From positions 20,050 through 84,049 of the IMG/VR virus record IMGVR_UViG_3300042013_000018: DNA of 64,000 nucleotides. One strand, written 5' to 3'. The position numbers were made by a program, and so were the translations under genes. The notes under the pieces are model-generated. The model had not been told where the DNA came from and searched no databases. It was given only the letters and a program-made list of their open reading frames with translations. Shown here piece by piece: positions 26,592 to 34,651 of this stretch. Each line of letters starts with the position of its first letter. The first letter of the stretch is position 1. This stretch comes from a virus (Duplodnaviria > Caudoviricetes).

Positions 26592-28034
26592 TTAGGTGAA
26601 GAGGTTTGGTCTAGTCAAATTTGCTGAGATCAGGCCAGAAGTGAAGTTTGGAATAATTTGTCTTTGAGCAAGGGTAATGAAAGAATCACTAGTTGCATCG
26701 ACTTGATCATCCTTATTTTTACGGCTGCCATCGAAGCTTTCCAACTCGTCAAAGTATGTATCGTTCCAATCAGCTTCAACATAATCAATCAGACCCGCTT
26801 CGGCGGCTGCTGCGAATGGTTGGAAACGTGTTATTTTTGACTTGTTAGAAGGGCGCATTCTGGCGTAAAACCCGTCTGACAAAAGCTCTTTAATCATCAT
26901 CTGTCCGGCAGCTTTACCGGCTTGTCCGGGCTCTTGAGGCAAGATAATCTCTGTACTTGGTGGGTCAGATTTGGCTGTTTCAATAATCTTAGCCATAACT
27001 TCACCAAACCTTGCACGAAACCTAACAACATCAACTACAATATATCGACCTTGTTTTGTCTTACCAATTAAAACACCAGCCGTCCAGTCAGGATTTGGTA
27101 AGGATTCCGATGGGATGGAACCTGCTATATCCCATGCACGACAGTAAGACACAATCTCTTTATCGAACAAATTAACTTTACTACAGAATTCTTTTTTCAT
27201 GAATCCTGCTGCACTTTCGCGAACAAACCAATTGCCCTCTAGGAGCCGTTTACGTTCAGTACCACGAAGACCTTTAAGCCAAGCTACATATTTAGGGTTA
27301 ACTTCTTCTACAATTTTATTATCATAAACGTTAGCGCTAATAAAGGTAAAAGATAGAGCATCTTGCTCTCTTACACCATACTCAGCCAGAAGTTGTTGTT
27401 TAGTATCACCCCAAACAAAATCACCATCCATGAAAGAAAAGTATCTCAACATCCCATCTTTTGAACGGTCAGGAGTTCCATCTTCTTGCAAATAAGGTTC
27501 AACCCACTTTCTGAGGCCGTGGTCAGCATCAGGATTGCAGGTGATTTTAAGGTGAGGTTTGATCGAAGGGCAAGAAGGGTTACGCATACGAGACATGATA
27601 TATTGTATCATGTACATCGTATATTGAGTTCCCTCATCAATATAGAAAAGATTAGCTTCAGAACCTTGCCAGTTTACATCCGCTGCATCATTCTCAAAGT
27701 GCTTGAGATAGATTTCAGCACCACTAGCATGGAACACGAATTTACCATCTTTCGCACGCCACGTATATTCATCTGGTTTATATGCTTGACTAAATACGCG
27801 CTTACATTTAGTTAGCAAACCACCCGGACCATTAAGTTGAGGCGTTGTACGACGGGTCATTACACCAATGAAGTTTGGAATGTCTGTATACTTGAGGAAG
27901 TCGATAACCCCAATTTCACTTTTTCCGCTCGCGGCTGCGCCACCGAATAAGGTTACGTCAGCCTCCGAGGCGATATACATACTTTGACGTAATGAACATG
28001 GCCCCGGTAGCTTTTTCTCAAGAATTTCAGCCAC
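26592..28034 (-). CDS. terL: Terminase large subunit (GTG start at 28034 after GAGGAGG)
   Basis: Walker A GGAAASGKS, Walker B FYIDEG, TCNPD coupling motif, nuclease RAWD...DDQVDA. Confidence 0.95.
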   Translation of the reverse strand: MAEILEKKLPGPCSLRQSMYIASEADVTLFGGAAASGKSEIGVIDFLKYTDIPNFIGVMTRRTTPQLNGPGGLLTKCKRVFSQAYKPDEYTWRAKDGKFVFHASGAEIYLKHFENDAADVNWQGSEANLFYIDEGTQYTMYMIQYIMSRMRNPSCPSIKPHLKITCNPDADHGLRKWVEPYLQEDGTPDRSKDGMLRYFSFMDGDFVWGDTKQQLLAEYGVREQDALSFTFISANVYDNKIVEEVNPKYVAWLKGLRGTERKRLLEGNWFVRESAAGFMKKEFCSKVNLFDKEIVSYCRAWDIAGSIPSESLPNPDWTAGVLIGKTKQGRYIVVDVVRFRARFGEVMAKIIETAKSDPPSTEIILPQEPGQAGKAAGQMMIKELLSDGFYARMRPSNKSKITRFQPFAAAAEAGLIDYVEADWNDTYFDELESFDGSRKNKDDQVDATSDSFITLAQRQIIPNFTSGLISANLTRPNLFT

Positions 28035-29190
28035 TTGTGGCCTCCTCAATGTATTTAATAATCAAGTCTTTAGCTTCATTACTAAAGCATTCAGTGTAGC
28101 CTGTGAACTTCTTAGTTGGTTTATGATAATAACCAAGAGATTTTAGTTCTCGCATAATCTTTCTTTCAAGATTTGCTGAGTCTATATTAATCATCTCTTT
28201 TTCATATACAAAGCTGTAATCGTAAATATCTTTTTGACGTTTGTAAACCTTTTCTCGGCCCTTCTTATTACAAGTAATACCAAGCTTAAGGAAAGATTCT
28301 TCACCATCAGACATTTCAATAATATAAATAGAACCTAATCTTTGACCAAGTTCTACATCTTCAGTGTATCGGTCAACCATATTATATGTTGTTTTATCAT
28401 AAGTGCATTGGGCGCAACCTTTACCTTTTACGTGGCATAGTGGTCGTTGCTCAAAAATCCCATGAACATCACATACAATCTTAACCTTTGTTTCTGTATT
28501 TACGTATTCTGCAAATTCATAAGAGTATTTATCTTTATGAATTTGCTTTGCCCGTTCAATAAAATATTCTGTTGTGTATTCTGAATAGCGTTGAAGTAAA
28601 CTTCTTTCAACACCGCACTTAGGACAACCATTTCCATACATATGCGGTCCGGCTGATTGAATAAACTCACCATGCTCTGGACAGCCAATGATAACTTTCT
28701 GAGTGAAGCCTTTAGTTAAAATAGCTTTAGAATAGTCATATTTATTTCCATGAAACTCTATGCTCTTAGCTAGAAAGTCATCTTGTGATAGTCTCTGCTT
28801 TTGTACGCTGCATTCTGGACAGCCACGGGACACCAAGTGGTGTGCTACCGTCTGACTGAATACCCCATGATCCTTACAAATAATATCGATTTTACTTGTA
28901 GTCTTGGTTGTAGTCACTAAACAATAGTCAAACTTGTTTTTGTGTATTGCGGAGGCTTCAACAACAAAGTCTTCAATAGAACGCTTGAGTGGGATAGACT
29001 CATGAACACAATGGCGACAACCTGCACCTTTCAGGTGAGAGTCTGTTCGCTGAACAAATATACCATGATCTGTACATTCAATATCAATGTAATATCTAGG
29101 ACCTCGTGCTTCCCAAGCAACATACTTATATTTGCTATCGTGCACGCTATTTGCTTTTTCTATAAATCTCTCGAAATTAAATTCTGGCAA
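28027..29190 (-). CDS. Homing-endonuclease-like protein with four Zn-ribbon (DUF723-like) repeats and GIY-YIG-like C-terminus
   Basis: Repeats I.C..HG.F.Q....H..G.GC..C; C-terminal GSIYIIEM...FLKLGIT. Confidence 0.8.
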   Translation of the reverse strand: MPEFNFERFIEKANSVHDSKYKYVAWEARGPRYYIDIECTDHGIFVQRTDSHLKGAGCRHCVHESIPLKRSIEDFVVEASAIHKNKFDYCLVTTTKTTSKIDIICKDHGVFSQTVAHHLVSRGCPECSVQKQRLSQDDFLAKSIEFHGNKYDYSKAILTKGFTQKVIIGCPEHGEFIQSAGPHMYGNGCPKCGVERSLLQRYSEYTTEYFIERAKQIHKDKYSYEFAEYVNTETKVKIVCDVHGIFEQRPLCHVKGKGCAQCTYDKTTYNMVDRYTEDVELGQRLGSIYIIEMSDGEESFLKLGITCNKKGREKVYKRQKDIYDYSFVYEKEMINIDSANLERKIMRELKSLGYYHKPTKKFTGYTECFSNEAKDLIIKYIEEATSG

Positions 29191-30981: not shown

Positions 30982-31245
30982 TTAGGCCACCTGTACGCAG
31001 AGACGACCAGAACCCTTAGCCCAGATAATGGACTCTCCTTGATCGATCATATACATTTCGACAGTGATAAGCTGTAGACCGTCTAGGGAAGAACTTGCAG
31101 GCTGGAAAGGTTTTAACTGGACACGGACATTACCCGTTCCCTTAAACTGAAGAAGAACTTTAGTTCCTACAGGAATACCGGAGAGGAGGTTTACATTCTG
31201 ATAGCTAACATTATCTAGCACAACATCTGCGATTGTATCTGACAT
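30982..31245 (-). CDS. Small hypothetical (probably structural partner of the fibre-like protein)
   Basis: 87-aa beta-rich ORF ending 1 nt before the next start. Confidence 0.6.
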   Translation of the reverse strand: MSDTIADVVLDNVSYQNVNLLSGIPVGTKVLLQFKGTGNVRVQLKPFQPASSSLDGLQLITVEMYMIDQGESIIWAKGSGRLCVQVA

Positions 31246-31298
31246 CTTAACACCTTTTTATATTTATTTTTAGGTGTCTGGTTATCAAGAGGTTTTAT

Positions 31299-31590
31299 AG
31301 CCGCAACAACAGACTACTACGGCTTCTAAGAATACAGCCTCTGTCTGTCTTGGGGTGTAACGAATAAGTGTGACCATTTCAGGTCACGAACCCCACCAGA
31401 GGTTCTAGGGGTCTCAGGAACTAGCTGAGATACCAAGCCGAGGCTTGATTAGTATTCCCTTGTTCTCACCCTACACCAACGAACATATAGAAATTGATGG
31501 GGTTGCTCTATACAGCCAAGGGAAATTCTTTATAGGTCATTTAAGCCCTATTAAACCGTCTTTATAGTATTAGTGGGTCAACTATAGTCT
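31299..31590 (-). ncRNA. Large multi-hairpin structured RNA (family unidentified)
   Basis: At least 7 stems in an ORF-free gap; G-U pairs favour the minus strand. Confidence 0.65.
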
Positions 31591-31597
31591 TTAAGCT

Positions 31598-32002
31598 TTA
31601 TTCGTCTTCCGGGTCAATATACACCAATGAAAGACGTGGTTTAAGCTCAGCAGCAATCTCCTTAGGAGTTTGTTCAGCTTCTTCATCTTCACGCTTGCCT
31701 TTCAGACGAGCATTGAACGAACCAAGCTCTTCTGCGCTTGCACTCTTGATCACCGAGACAATAGAGTTCAGTACCCACTTGGCACTTGCAACACTGTCAG
31801 CATTAACTTCTGTGCCAGCCAAACTCTTGTCTACTAGCTGTAGTGCAAGGTCTTGACGCTCAAGAAGCTTGTCAGCGAGTTCACGAAGTTTACTCTTCTT
31901 GATTCGAGTAGAAGAGTTTCCTGAAGTATTCCGATTACTTTTTTCGCCGTCGAACTGTGTCGCACGAGACTTGTCAGTTTGTGTGGGCTTCTTATTTGCC
32001 AT
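31598..32002 (-). CDS. Putative terminase small subunit
   Basis: N-terminal RATQF.G..S.RN.SGN motif, helical body; upstream of terL in the same block. Confidence 0.5.
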   Translation of the reverse strand: MANKKPTQTDKSRATQFDGEKSNRNTSGNSSTRIKKSKLRELADKLLERQDLALQLVDKSLAGTEVNADSVASAKWVLNSIVSVIKSASAEELGSFNARLKGKREDEEAEQTPKEIAAELKPRLSLVYIDPEDE

Positions 32003-32035: not shown

Positions 32036-33046
32036 TCAAATCTCAATACCACCATACTCTAAGAATATTTCTCTTACAGTATCCAGATTTAATACCGAGG
32101 TTGTTTCAGAAAACCCTGCCTTCATGAATTCTCTAGGGACAATCCCACAGACTAATGTACTTTTACAATAACTCTCAGCCGCTCGGCACTGATTTCGATC
32201 ATTGAAATGGAAAAGATGTGTATTTTCAATTCGAAATACTGAGCTATATCTCTGTTCCTTAAGCCTTCTGGTTATGTCAGAAGTTATTCCGAATTTTATC
32301 GCAATAGGTAGATCATTATCGTAAACAATGTTGATATAAGATTGGTTCTGGTTTCCAAAGTTTGTACAGCCACAGCAGTAGACACCCCTCTTCAGTGCAG
32401 ATGCTTGAGCTTCGCCATAAACATTACAGACGGGGCATTCTACTGACCAGTATATGGCGAACCCGCTAGGACGTTTACCCAACCTTTTAAAGATAGTGTC
32501 AGGGTGATATTTTCCACTAGCAAAGAAAATGTCGCATGTCACAGAATTCTTATGTACTTTACGATCTATGGACTTAGATTCATTACCACAGGAAGGGCAC
32601 CCTCTTCCTAATTTAACTAAATTAGATAACTTACCGGATGTCCATGTCCCGTGCTTATTGCAAACAAGCTTGCATAGTGTGGTAGCTCCAATATAAGCTT
32701 CAGCCCATCCATCAAAATAGAATCCAAGTTCAGAACTCTTTCTCGTAGCTAAAAGTTTCCACTGATCTTCAGTCCAACGAACTCTAGGAGAGCAACCACA
32801 AGGTATCTGACCTCTATTTAAGTCTGTGAGCGTTGCCCAGAAGAAACCTTGATCAAAAAGTTCAGGATCTTTGGCACACTCATGACACTTGAGATAGTGT
32901 ATATTGTAATTTTTACTAGGATGTTTACTATAACCTAGCAACTCTAACTGTGGGTAGTTTACAAAAATAAAGCCATACTGAACATCATCCATTCTCTTTA
33001 AGTGGACGTTCTTCATATCTGCAATCATAAAACCTTCTTTAGTCAA
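32036..33046 (-). CDS. Homing-endonuclease-like protein (Zn-ribbon repeats plus GIY-YIG-like domain); likely start ATG 33028
   Basis: CxxC repeats (CHEC, CNKHG, CPSC, CPVC); SYINIV...IKFGITSDITRRL. Confidence 0.75.
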   Translation of the reverse strand: MTKEGFMIADMKNVHLKRMDDVQYGFIFVNYPQLELLGYSKHPSKNYNIHYLKCHECAKDPELFDQGFFWATLTDLNRGQIPCGCSPRVRWTEDQWKLLATRKSSELGFYFDGWAEAYIGATTLCKLVCNKHGTWTSGKLSNLVKLGRGCPSCGNESKSIDRKVHKNSVTCDIFFASGKYHPDTIFKRLGKRPSGFAIYWSVECPVCNVYGEAQASALKRGVYCCGCTNFGNQNQSYINIVYDNDLPIAIKFGITSDITRRLKEQRYSSVFRIENTHLFHFNDRNQCRAAESYCKSTLVCGIVPREFMKAGFSETTSVLNLDTVREIFLEYGGIEI

Positions 33047-33134: not shown

Positions 33135-33383
33135 AGGCTGTTGCGCAGCCTGTGTAAAGTATGTAAATACTTTCTAAAATTATCTCAATAGGACAATACC
33201 TACAATATGCTACGCAAGGAGATAATTTTAGAAAGCTCACTGATAGTCGGGAGAGGGCAACTACCAATGAGTAAAGACATTTCTTGAGGAGAGCAAGTTG
33301 TCTTTAAGGTCCGGCATGAGGAGGGAGACGCCGGGAGGAAACACAGCATTAATAGAATTTCTTCTTGGTAGCTGTGGTGAAAC
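33135..33383 (-). ncRNA. Multi-hairpin sRNA with CU-rich anti-SD-like loops
   Basis: Six stems; three consecutive loops CUCCCUCCUC, CUCUCCU, GCCCUCUCCC; 17-bp perfect stem 33170-33186/33219-33235. Confidence 0.7.
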
Positions 33384-33457
33384 TGGTGCCCCAGTAAGGA
33401 ATCAAACCTCACTCTGTTGATTACAAGTCAACTGCATCATCACAATGCTTCAAGGGC
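33384..33457 (-). tRNA. trnT: tRNA-Thr(UGU), encoded CCA
   Basis: GCCCTTG..GCAT/ATGC D-arm, GTTGA-CTTGTAA-TCAAC anticodon arm, T-arm with TTTGATT loop, GGGGC-A-CCA end. Confidence 0.85.
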
Positions 33458-33660: not shown

Positions 33661-33852
33661 TCACTTTCTTAAAGACTGTTCCATAGTGACTGATACCCTC
33701 GTGTTGATATTCCCAGCGAAAGCATCCATCAACAAACTCTTCAGCACTTTCTTCAAAGAAGCATACACAATCTTTTTCTTCAGCCCCACAATCAGGGCAA
33801 TAGTTTTCGTTGCCCATTCTTGTGGACTCCAGTTAGTTAACTTCGATTTCAT
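33661..33852 (-). CDS. Small basic hypothetical protein
   Basis: 63-aa ORF in operon orientation; weak RBS. Confidence 0.35.
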   Translation of the reverse strand: MKSKLTNWSPQEWATKTIALIVGLKKKIVYASLKKVLKSLLMDAFAGNINTRVSVTMEQSLRK

Positions 33853-33901
33853 TAATGTAGCAAGAAAGCTTGCAATAAAGCAAGCCCCTTGACAACTAAT
33901 A

Positions 33902-34651
33902 CTAGATATAATTATAAAGTTTCTTATAATTCACGAAATAGTATGGATCATCTTTATACTTATCATAAACCCTTCTGGCTTTTTTACACCGCTTACCTGA
34001 GCGGATGTATGAAATGTATGACTGGTCTAGTCCTACAATTTTAGCTACTTGAGACAGACTTAAATCCCCATCACACAACCTGAAAAGGTCAATATAGTGA
34101 TTCCAGCAATGTAATGGGTAGTCTTGGTTATGAGTCTTACAGACTGCCAAAAACTCTTCCGGGATGTGGTTTTCTTTGTACCACTCCTTTTTAATGGATT
34201 GATCAATTGCTTTACGATCAATACCCGAAGTATCTCCAGTAAGGATAAATCTGACAGCCCGCTCCTTTATAAAAGCCTCTGTTAGTGTCCTCCCAATGGT
34301 TAGACCTGTGTCCCAAGAGTGTTTAATGTTTTCTGATTTTGTTGCCCATTCAAGGTTTTCAACTCTATTATCTCCTTTATCTCCATTTATATGATTTACT
34401 TCAGGTTTATTTTCAGGGTTGGGGATAAAGGCTTCGGCCACCAATCTGTGGTGATACTTGTGTTCTTGTTTTTGTCCTTTTAAAGAGACTGCACACATGT
34501 GATATGTAAACTCTTGCCTTGATTCCACGTAGAACCTTTTCTCTCCTACAGATACTTTACCACGGATATGTGAAAATACCTTACCCTCTGTATTTACAGA
34601 GTATCGCCCTTCATATCCATCAACCCACTTTTCATTTTCTTCCAACATCAT
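33902..34651 (-). CDS. NUMOD4-HNH homing endonuclease
   Basis: [19 protein letters not shown] (NUMOD4); [35 protein letters not shown] (HNH). Confidence 0.9.

Follow-up and report, generated by a model that had tools for sequence, protein, structure and literature searches.

Conserved structured RNAs of phages are for the most part unexplained so far. GOLLD and ROOL were known beside tRNAs for 15 years until cryo-EM revealed them to be cage-forming. In enterobacteria, small RNAs are cut out of 3' untranslated regions (3' UTRs) by RNase E, and phage T4 carries its "species 1 and 2" RNAs within a tRNA cluster. GOLLD consists of a conserved and a variable domain, with tRNAs sometimes present in the linker, and one GOLLD RNA was first found beside a Met-tRNA (PMC12286853). 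Fremin and Bhatt (2023) reported 8,495 candidate structured RNAs from IMG/VR, the data source that we also used, and these are likewise covarying intergenic phage motifs without known function (PMC10690425). The main text of that paper describes no motif downstream of a gene like orf134 (see below); the accompanying catalogue may already list the motif that we report here (PMC10690425).

The window that we analyzed is a stretch of 64,000 nt, corresponding to positions 20,050-84,049 of IMG/VR virus record IMGVR_UViG_3300042013_000018, an 84-kb viral record with terminal repeats; the DNA was sampled from a rhizosphere metagenome. On the minus strand, an HNH endonuclease gene, tRNA-Thr (33384-33457), a T5orf172/CapR-type endonuclease gene (32036-33046), and orf134 (31598-32002; 134 aa) are followed by a 352-nt gap (31246-31597). 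The first gene past the gap is orf87 (30982-31245), which is assigned to a PHROG without known function (phrog_4770), and it is followed by a tail-fibre-like gene (403 aa), orf115, another endonuclease gene, and the genes for TerL (Terminase_6, T4-type), a portal of Mu type, an S49 protease, and the major capsid protein. TerL is ~50% identical to TerL of Pseudomonas Nankokuvirus/Pakpunavirus phages. The gap contains a member of a previously unclassified RNA family carried by uncultured ~85-93 kb phages with T4-type TerL. The family is new, well supported, and an orphan, although RNAs of this general kind are known; judged from its sequence, the window copy (31370-31531, minus strand) is a truncated, short-form member of the family plus a pseudoknot module.

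GOLLD and ROOL are likewise phage-borne and unexplained in function, and they are often found near tRNA islands. Like GOLLD, the family has two separable domains and optional modules, and tRNA-Met or tRNA-Thr genes abut the RNA or replace a domain. However, GOLLD and ROOL exceed 500-800 nt, whereas the family core is ~70-160 nt long (up to ~450 nt with inserts); the helices and motifs are also unlike, and the GOLLD and ROOL models of Rfam gave no match on the window or its relatives. The small RNAs of 3' UTRs and tRNA operons resemble it in their position, either at the end of a coding transcript or next to a tRNA, in the hairpin with an A/U-rich 3' end, and in the A/U-rich 5' boundary; they are unrelated in sequence. 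The pRNA of phi29 is also structured, comes from a tailed phage, and is encoded close to packaging genes, but it differs from the RNA described here in its architecture, in the absence of an Rfam match at our locus, and in the T4-type TerL of this phage.

An initial annotation of the gap had described one structured RNA of ~290 nt, and every stem listed in it was recovered on the minus strand. These are the stems UAUAGU/ACUAUA (31581-31586 with 31563-31568) and AUAGG/CCUAU (31547-31551 with 31532-31536), a stem UUCCCUUG/CAAGGGAA (31517-31524 with 31455-31462) that encloses GUAUAGA/UCUAUAU, the stem-loop AUCAAGC-CUCG-GCUUGGU (31432-31449; helix P1 below), the stem UCUCAG/CUGAGA (31412-31430; helix P2 below), the hairpin GUGACC-UGAAAU-GGUCAC (31370-31387), and a G-U-rich hairpin AGCCGUAGUAG/UUGUUGCGGCU (31314-31324 with 31299-31309). 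Folding energy exceeded that of dinucleotide shuffles on the minus strand only: the whole gap folds at -99.6 kcal/mol (z -2.58, with 0 of 100 shuffles as good) compared with a z of -0.59 for the plus strand, and a 162-nt core at 31370-31531 reaches z -3.64 on the minus strand (0 of 200 shuffles as good). Two pairings had to be revised. The pairing CCCC..GGGG is not kept in relatives, where the conserved helix is instead GAACC(UC)/(GG)GGUUC around UGGU (P3); and the loop CAACCCCA, for which UGGGGUU (31389-31395) had been suggested as a partner, pairs instead with UUGGUG..GGG at 31469-31479 in the same module, as an H-type pseudoknot. The idea of one continuous RNA also did not hold, as the stretch is a composite of three units: the RNA at 31370-31531, an A/U-rich spacer at 31532-31597, and a separate leader of orf87 at 31246-31351.

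Using cmscan with all 4227 Rfam families, we found no match on the whole window at the gathering score; with the E-value limit relaxed to 10 for the gap and to 1-10 for relatives, there were only chance rows of miRNA/snoRNA type. Similarly, blastn of the region identified no match among cultured phage records, and no repeats of the element were found within the genome. The earlier designation as an unclassified phage ncRNA is thus borne out by the absence of Rfam matches and by a conserved RNA with covarying helices that occupies this position in ~35 related contigs.

We obtained 26 related loci (designated by L numbers) by searching IMG/VR with orf134 and orf87. The backbone of orf134, orf115, and TerL is kept among them; the orf134-orf115 interval is highly variable, and the RNA region within it is a hot spot of gene insertion. 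The first gene downstream of the RNA differs among relatives (orf87, orf115, a tRNA, or others), and in L014 a strong sigma70-like promoter (11/12) follows the RNA. Alignment of the gap to the relatives with blastn yielded patchy matches only: L005, L006, and L016 share its middle part, its final 100 nt were recovered solely in front of close orf87 homologues, and a segment of 60 nt aligned to L002 and L024, though at locations quite unlike that in the window. Within the relatives, a pattern recurred that consists of a hairpin, GGUAUC, a second hairpin, CCC, and a third hairpin with the loop UCUGGYGG. Further members were gathered by a pattern scan combined with a hairpin filter, and a covariance model (R1) was built from two minimal relatives with a six-helix structure. 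R1 matched ~35 related viral contigs, always on the strand of orf134, with one copy in each of five complete genomes. The pattern scan also returned 13 matches in 185,000 bacterial and archaeal genomes; R1 confirmed none of these, and they are therefore taken as chance. In a Nankokuvirus locus upstream of TerL, there was no R1 match.

The full form of the RNA is ~160 nt long and has six helices, arranged as a 5' domain (P1-P3) and a 3' domain (P4-P6). After AAAGAAUC, the 5' domain consists of P1, GGUAUC, P2 (loop GCCUAG or CUAGUU), ACCC, and P3 (loop UCUGGCGG); the 3' domain continues with AAAUGAC, P4 (loop GAAAGA), GUGGAGA, P5, and P6 (loop AGGnAGnGUGG), and an A/U-rich tail follows. Across the family, loops and linkers are invariant and stem sequences are free to vary. 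P1 is capped by UUCG, GAAA, or GCAA tetraloops among the relatives, and changes are fully compensatory both in P3 (GAACC/GGUUC in the window, GGCAU/AUGCC in L006, GCACU/AGUGC in L005) and in P2 (UCUCAG/CUGAGA in the window versus GACCU/AGGUC in L005). In full copies, the A/U-rich motif AAYUAUUUUAUA directly follows P6 (e.g., L015:3623-3640 and L014:3553-3570); this motif and its counterpart at 31359-31369 of the window may serve to terminate transcription, as a site of processing, or as part of a promoter. P6 itself is unlike a textbook terminator, with an A-U-rich base and a 10-nt loop, and a simple terminator scan makes no call there. Motifs of the Csr/Rsm type (GGA) are confined to the 3' domain and absent from the window. 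The segments UCUGGCGG and GGUAGUGUGG presumably resemble parts of 5S rRNA, and the Rfam 5S model gave no match to the RNA.

In the R1 alignment, the helices covary among relatives: 97.4% of helix cells are paired and 35 of the 41 pairs show changes on both sides, counts that come from a model-fitted alignment and thus lean toward the structure. When the partners were slid by one to three columns, just 32-39% of cells remained paired. The 22 strongest pairs by mutual information are all helix pairs, and mutual information revealed no tertiary contacts beyond the helices. Because G-U or U-G combinations far outnumber A-C or C-A combinations in helix cells (107 versus 11), the fold belongs to the RNA of the minus strand, not to duplex DNA.

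The RNA is associated with orf134. Of the 35 RNA loci, 31 have an orf134 homologue upstream according to an HMM of orf134, and the RNA lies on the same strand, 9-415 nt from the orf134 stop codon; in L121, it is located 908 nt past the stop, behind an inserted HNH gene. In minimal relatives, the RNA begins at or just after the stop codon, which AAAGAAUC overlaps. The association is not absolute, since 4 of the 35 RNA loci are without an orf134 homologue and among the orf134 loci searched with filters off, L002 and L022 yielded no RNA with R1. As the downstream gene is not constant and a promoter precedes it in L014, we infer that the RNA marks the end of a transcription unit.

Within the window, the conserved 5' boundary motif of the family, AAAGAAU, is present at 31525-31531 based on alignments (minus strand, as for all features of this copy); in minimal relatives, this motif overlaps or directly follows the orf134 stop codon. 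The window copy is 147 nt after the stop codon of orf134, on the same strand. With filters off, the top match of R1 on the 64-kb window is the 5' domain at 31388-31454 (16.3 bits, E 7.6e-5), consisting of P1 (31432-31449; loop CUCG) followed by GGUAUC, P2 (31412-31430; loop CUAGUUC) followed by CCCC, and P3 (31388-31405; loop UCUGGUGG). P1, P2, and P3 retain all of their base pairs, and the motifs GGUAUC, CCC, and UCUGGYGG are kept, with compensatory differences from L005, L006, L011, L014, and others. The copy aligns convincingly to model positions 1-67 only; positions 68-163 (P4-P6 and GUGGAGA) are without a credible alignment in the window. In place of P4-P6 and AAYUAUUUUAUA, the window has a short terminator-like 3' end (31359-31387), which consists of the hairpin GUGACC-UGAAAU-GGUCAC and the tail ACUUAUUCGUU. 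The simple terminator scan calls this hairpin (31370-31387; 6 pairs, 4 of them G-C), with an interrupted tail ACTTATTCGT, and the sequence ACUUAUUCGU that follows it (31359-31369) resembles the A/U motif past P6 in full copies. No second copy of the RNA was found in the window or the genome. A weak second match at 33755-33891 (8.8 bits), in a non-coding stretch upstream of tRNA-Thr, was unconvincing; the sequence around it has no long ORF on the gene strand.

Similar short forms recur. In at least six relatives (L006, L028, L082, L025, L024, and L026), P1-P3, in some cases with P4, is followed by tRNA-Met without a 3' domain; L021 seems to keep the 3' domain only; and in a DNA contig from metagenome X6, the P3-plus-hairpin part of the window copy is joined to a P2 of the GCCUAG type. 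In L168 and L169, tRNA-Thr is located between orf134 and the RNA, directly before the RNA. Two adjacent R1 matches occur at L167:4279-4559, one covering the 5' domain through P4 and the other a unit with the 3' domain, separated by an insert; this is a split or partly duplicated form. Such short, 3'-only, and split forms show that the 5' and 3' domains can be separated; the former is retained most often, and the latter acts like an exchangeable end module.

Between AAAGAAU and P1, the window copy carries a 68-70-nt insert, which is shared with L005 and L006/L028 and which we call module 1 (31455-31524, minus strand). It is closed by a stem of 8 bp (UUCCCUUG/CAAGGGAA) and contains a hairpin (GUAUAGA/UCUAUAU), and the loop of this hairpin, ACCCCAUCAA, pairs with UUGGUG..GGG just downstream as the H-type pseudoknot; the segments AUGUUYGU and GUAGGGUGAGA are conserved. 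Among seven distinct copies, 92.9% of cells are paired, with changes on both sides in 13 of 24 pairs, and the pseudoknot helix is 98% paired; slid controls gave 38-61%. Module 1 also occurs upstream of orf134 in L002, L024, L029, L030, and L113, and in L002 and L024 it is located immediately after a sigma70-like promoter. In these two relatives, stretches of 700-1100 nt without long ORFs (L002:~1815-2976 and L024:~610-1420) precede the orf134 homologue; each is headed by the promoter and module 1 and has loops of the CCUCC type, resembling those of the neighbouring RNA at 33135-33383 of the window. At L024:1075-1100, there is also a P4-like hairpin, UGAC-UGAUG-GAAAGA-CAUCA. The copies of module 1 and the P4-like hairpin at these sites suggest that modules are shuffled between RNA loci on either side of orf134.

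The remaining two units of the gap differ in their conservation. The A/U-rich spacer (31532-31597, minus strand) contains a pair of small hairpins and CUAUAAAGA in duplicate; none of the IMG/VR relatives retrieved here has a counterpart to it, and short contigs of other metagenomes with 80-95% likeness cover 31455-31601. A possible promoter in the spacer (TTGACC-N19-TTTAAT) is too weak to claim. The unit at 31246-31351 (minus strand) is kept only with close orf87 homologues, whatever precedes it, and we therefore assign it to a leader/promoter cassette of orf87 outside the RNA family. In this leader, GGCU..AGCC..GGCU is able to form two mutually exclusive hairpins, and the hairpin AGCCnnn/nnnGGCU shows compensatory changes among relatives. 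The second hairpin, AGCCGUAGUAG/UUGUUGCGGCU, abuts TATAAA (31294-31299), and TATAAA or TATAAT is found beside the leader hairpin among relatives. The ribosome-binding site of orf87 is located within the hairpin GACACCU/AGGUGUU (31272-31278 with 31249-31255). The leader may be an attenuator or a translational switch. A DNA contig from run X2 joins 31239 to 31363, and that relative either lacks the orf87 leader cassette or has it replaced.

The protein encoded by orf134 has about 200 homologues in metagenomes, all unnamed, and its nearest relatives are 96% and 86% identical; one homologue (P0091) is recorded on a contig of ~84 kb in a Pseudomonas sp. assembly. A metagenome scan with orf134 yielded 8 loci, few of them new, and TBLASTN against cultured phage records identified no homologue. 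The protein belongs to no Pfam or PHROG family. AlphaFold2 predicted a helical body with a basic, disordered N-terminal part (pLDDT 67); neither a PDB profile search nor a Foldseek search with this model returned a structural match to the PDB, and no RNA-binding fold is recognizable from the predicted structure or the profile search. The ESM Atlas likewise revealed no usable function, and one cluster with DUF5681 (score 0.91) is treated as a lead only. As orf134 belongs to no known family and has no structural match, its earlier label as the small terminase gene (terS) is unproven.

With a probability of about 0.5, we interpret the window copy as a stable, short-form family RNA that is cut from the tail of the orf134 transcript and acts in trans, probably by binding a protein. 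The RNA would be transcribed as the tail of the orf134 transcript, and its ends would be determined by the 3' hairpin together with either cleavage of the RNase E type at the A/U-rich boundary motif AAAGAAU or, where a tRNA abuts the RNA, tRNA processing. Once released, the RNA might act in trans as a stable molecule that binds protein through its invariant loops and linkers, with the basic orf134 protein as a candidate partner; the 3' domain would be a replaceable end module, for which tRNA-Met or a plain hairpin is substituted in relatives. Several features point to a free, trans-acting RNA: loops and linkers are invariant while stems are free, each genome has a single copy, abutting tRNAs are present whose processing would release the RNA, and the gene downstream differs among phages and is served by a promoter of its own. 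The tRNA-Thr between orf134 and the RNA in L168 and L169 is informative in this regard; processing of this tRNA would sever the RNA from the mRNA, which favours a free RNA over a 3'-UTR element. Because of the steady partnership with orf134, an RNA-protein pair is the most attractive single hypothesis. It is also possible, albeit rather doubtful, that module 1, the P1-P6 RNA, the neighbouring RNA with anti-Shine-Dalgarno loops, P4-like hairpins, and tRNAs, which occur on either side of orf134 in different phages, constitute a modular RNA system that forms, with the small basic orf134 protein, a new phage ribonucleoprotein or a self-assembling small counterpart of GOLLD/ROOL, or alternatively that module 1 is a new ligand-binding aptamer. 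The latter could be suggested by the size of the module (~68 nt), its H-type pseudoknot with invariant unpaired bases, and its usual position as the first element past a promoter or boundary.

The tRNA arrangement in L168 and L169 also bears on another possibility, namely that the RNA is a cis-acting element at an operon junction, a 3' UTR of orf134 that works in place, either by shielding the upstream message from 3' exonucleases or by controlling, as a regulated terminator or attenuator, how far transcription continues past the orf134 unit into orf87, the tail-fibre gene, and the packaging genes. The constant placement of the RNA at the end of the orf134 unit, with the stop codon overlapping AAAGAAUC in minimal forms, is consistent with such an element, as are the terminal hairpin with its A/U-rich tail and the structural/packaging module that is always downstream; a 3' end for which a tRNA or a plain hairpin can stand in would also suit a generic stabilizer. 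However, a mere stabilizer or terminator would have no need of invariant loops and linkers, the RNA is separated from orf134 by a tRNA in two loci, the next gene downstream differs between loci and is preceded by a promoter or leader of its own, and no alternative antiterminator pairing was seen with the covarying P6 strands; on balance, we consider a cis-acting role unlikely, though it deserves serious attention. The large cis-regulatory RNA proposed earlier is likewise unlikely in the sense of control over one downstream gene, because that gene varies. We also considered a riboswitch or other known leader and rejected it based on the lack of an Rfam class, the varying downstream gene, and the lack of a visible competing pairing. 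The truncation of the window copy, by comparison, could mean decay: half of the family consensus, including P4-P6 and GUGGAGA, is missing, and the score is 16.3 bits versus 50-200 bits in full copies. In a region that is a hot spot of gene insertion, the 3' domain might have been lost, and its function with it, when the orf87 cassette was inserted. We find this improbable, as all P1-P3 pairs are intact and motifs are kept despite compensatory stem differences, forms with the 5' domain only occur in at least six other phages, the P3-plus-hairpin part occurs in another metagenome, and the 162-nt core retains a z of -3.64.

The invariance of the single-stranded motifs and the association with tRNA genes could also be explained if the conserved loops were seeds for pairing with phage or host mRNA or with the NCCA 3' end of tRNA. 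UGGN is complementary to NCCA, as known from T-box leaders and RNase P RNA, and UGGC or UGGU is present in the P3 loop. In the five complete genomes, however, the complement of the P3 loop, CCGCCAGA, is neither enriched nor consistently placed outside the RNA gene, and a change of the loop-closing U-G to U-A suggests a closed tetraloop, which is ill-suited to pairing; we regard base pairing as quite improbable. Two further explanations seem very improbable to us. The initial annotation had raised a link to packaging, in which the RNA would be a pRNA-like part of the DNA packaging motor, and the only observation in its favour is that the RNA lies a few genes upstream of TerL. Our analysis lends this link no support: variable inserts lie between the RNA and orf115 and TerL, there is no match to any Rfam family, the large terminase is T4-type and the portal Mu-type rather than a phi29-type system, and no self-complementary loop pair of the pRNA kind was seen. 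The same proximity to packaging genes, together with a richness in inverted repeats, would be expected of a DNA-level element such as a pac site, an origin, or an operator array. Such an element is nevertheless hardly credible given the excess of G-U over A-C in helices, the strand specificity of the folding excess, and the presence of stable RNA tetraloops; moreover, stems that covary with free sequence are the opposite of a DNA site recognized by protein.

For so small a data set, the family combines unusually clean covariation with a simple modular anatomy and a tie to one small protein, which makes the RNA-protein hypothesis concrete and testable. If correct, the pair would operate at the early/late boundary of widespread soil and freshwater phages akin to the Pseudomonas Nankokuvirus/Pakpunavirus lineage. 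With respect to annotation, gaps of this kind should not be treated as empty, and orf134 should not be called terS.

The locus is also rich in mobile genes. Three endonuclease genes of T5orf172/CapR and HNH type occur within a 7-kb part of the window (28027-29190, 32036-33046, and 33902-34651), and one of them ends within the start of TerL (overlap 28027-28049). In many relatives they are missing from the corresponding sites, as expected for mobile homing endonucleases. We rejected the possibility that the RNA in the gap is a group I intron; it sits between two complete genes, and the Rfam Intron_gpI model had no match in the window. The same search identified a true group I intron at L024:5912-6138 (71.5 bits, E 1.8e-16), which lies past orf115, probably within TerL or close to it, with homing endonucleases abundant around it.
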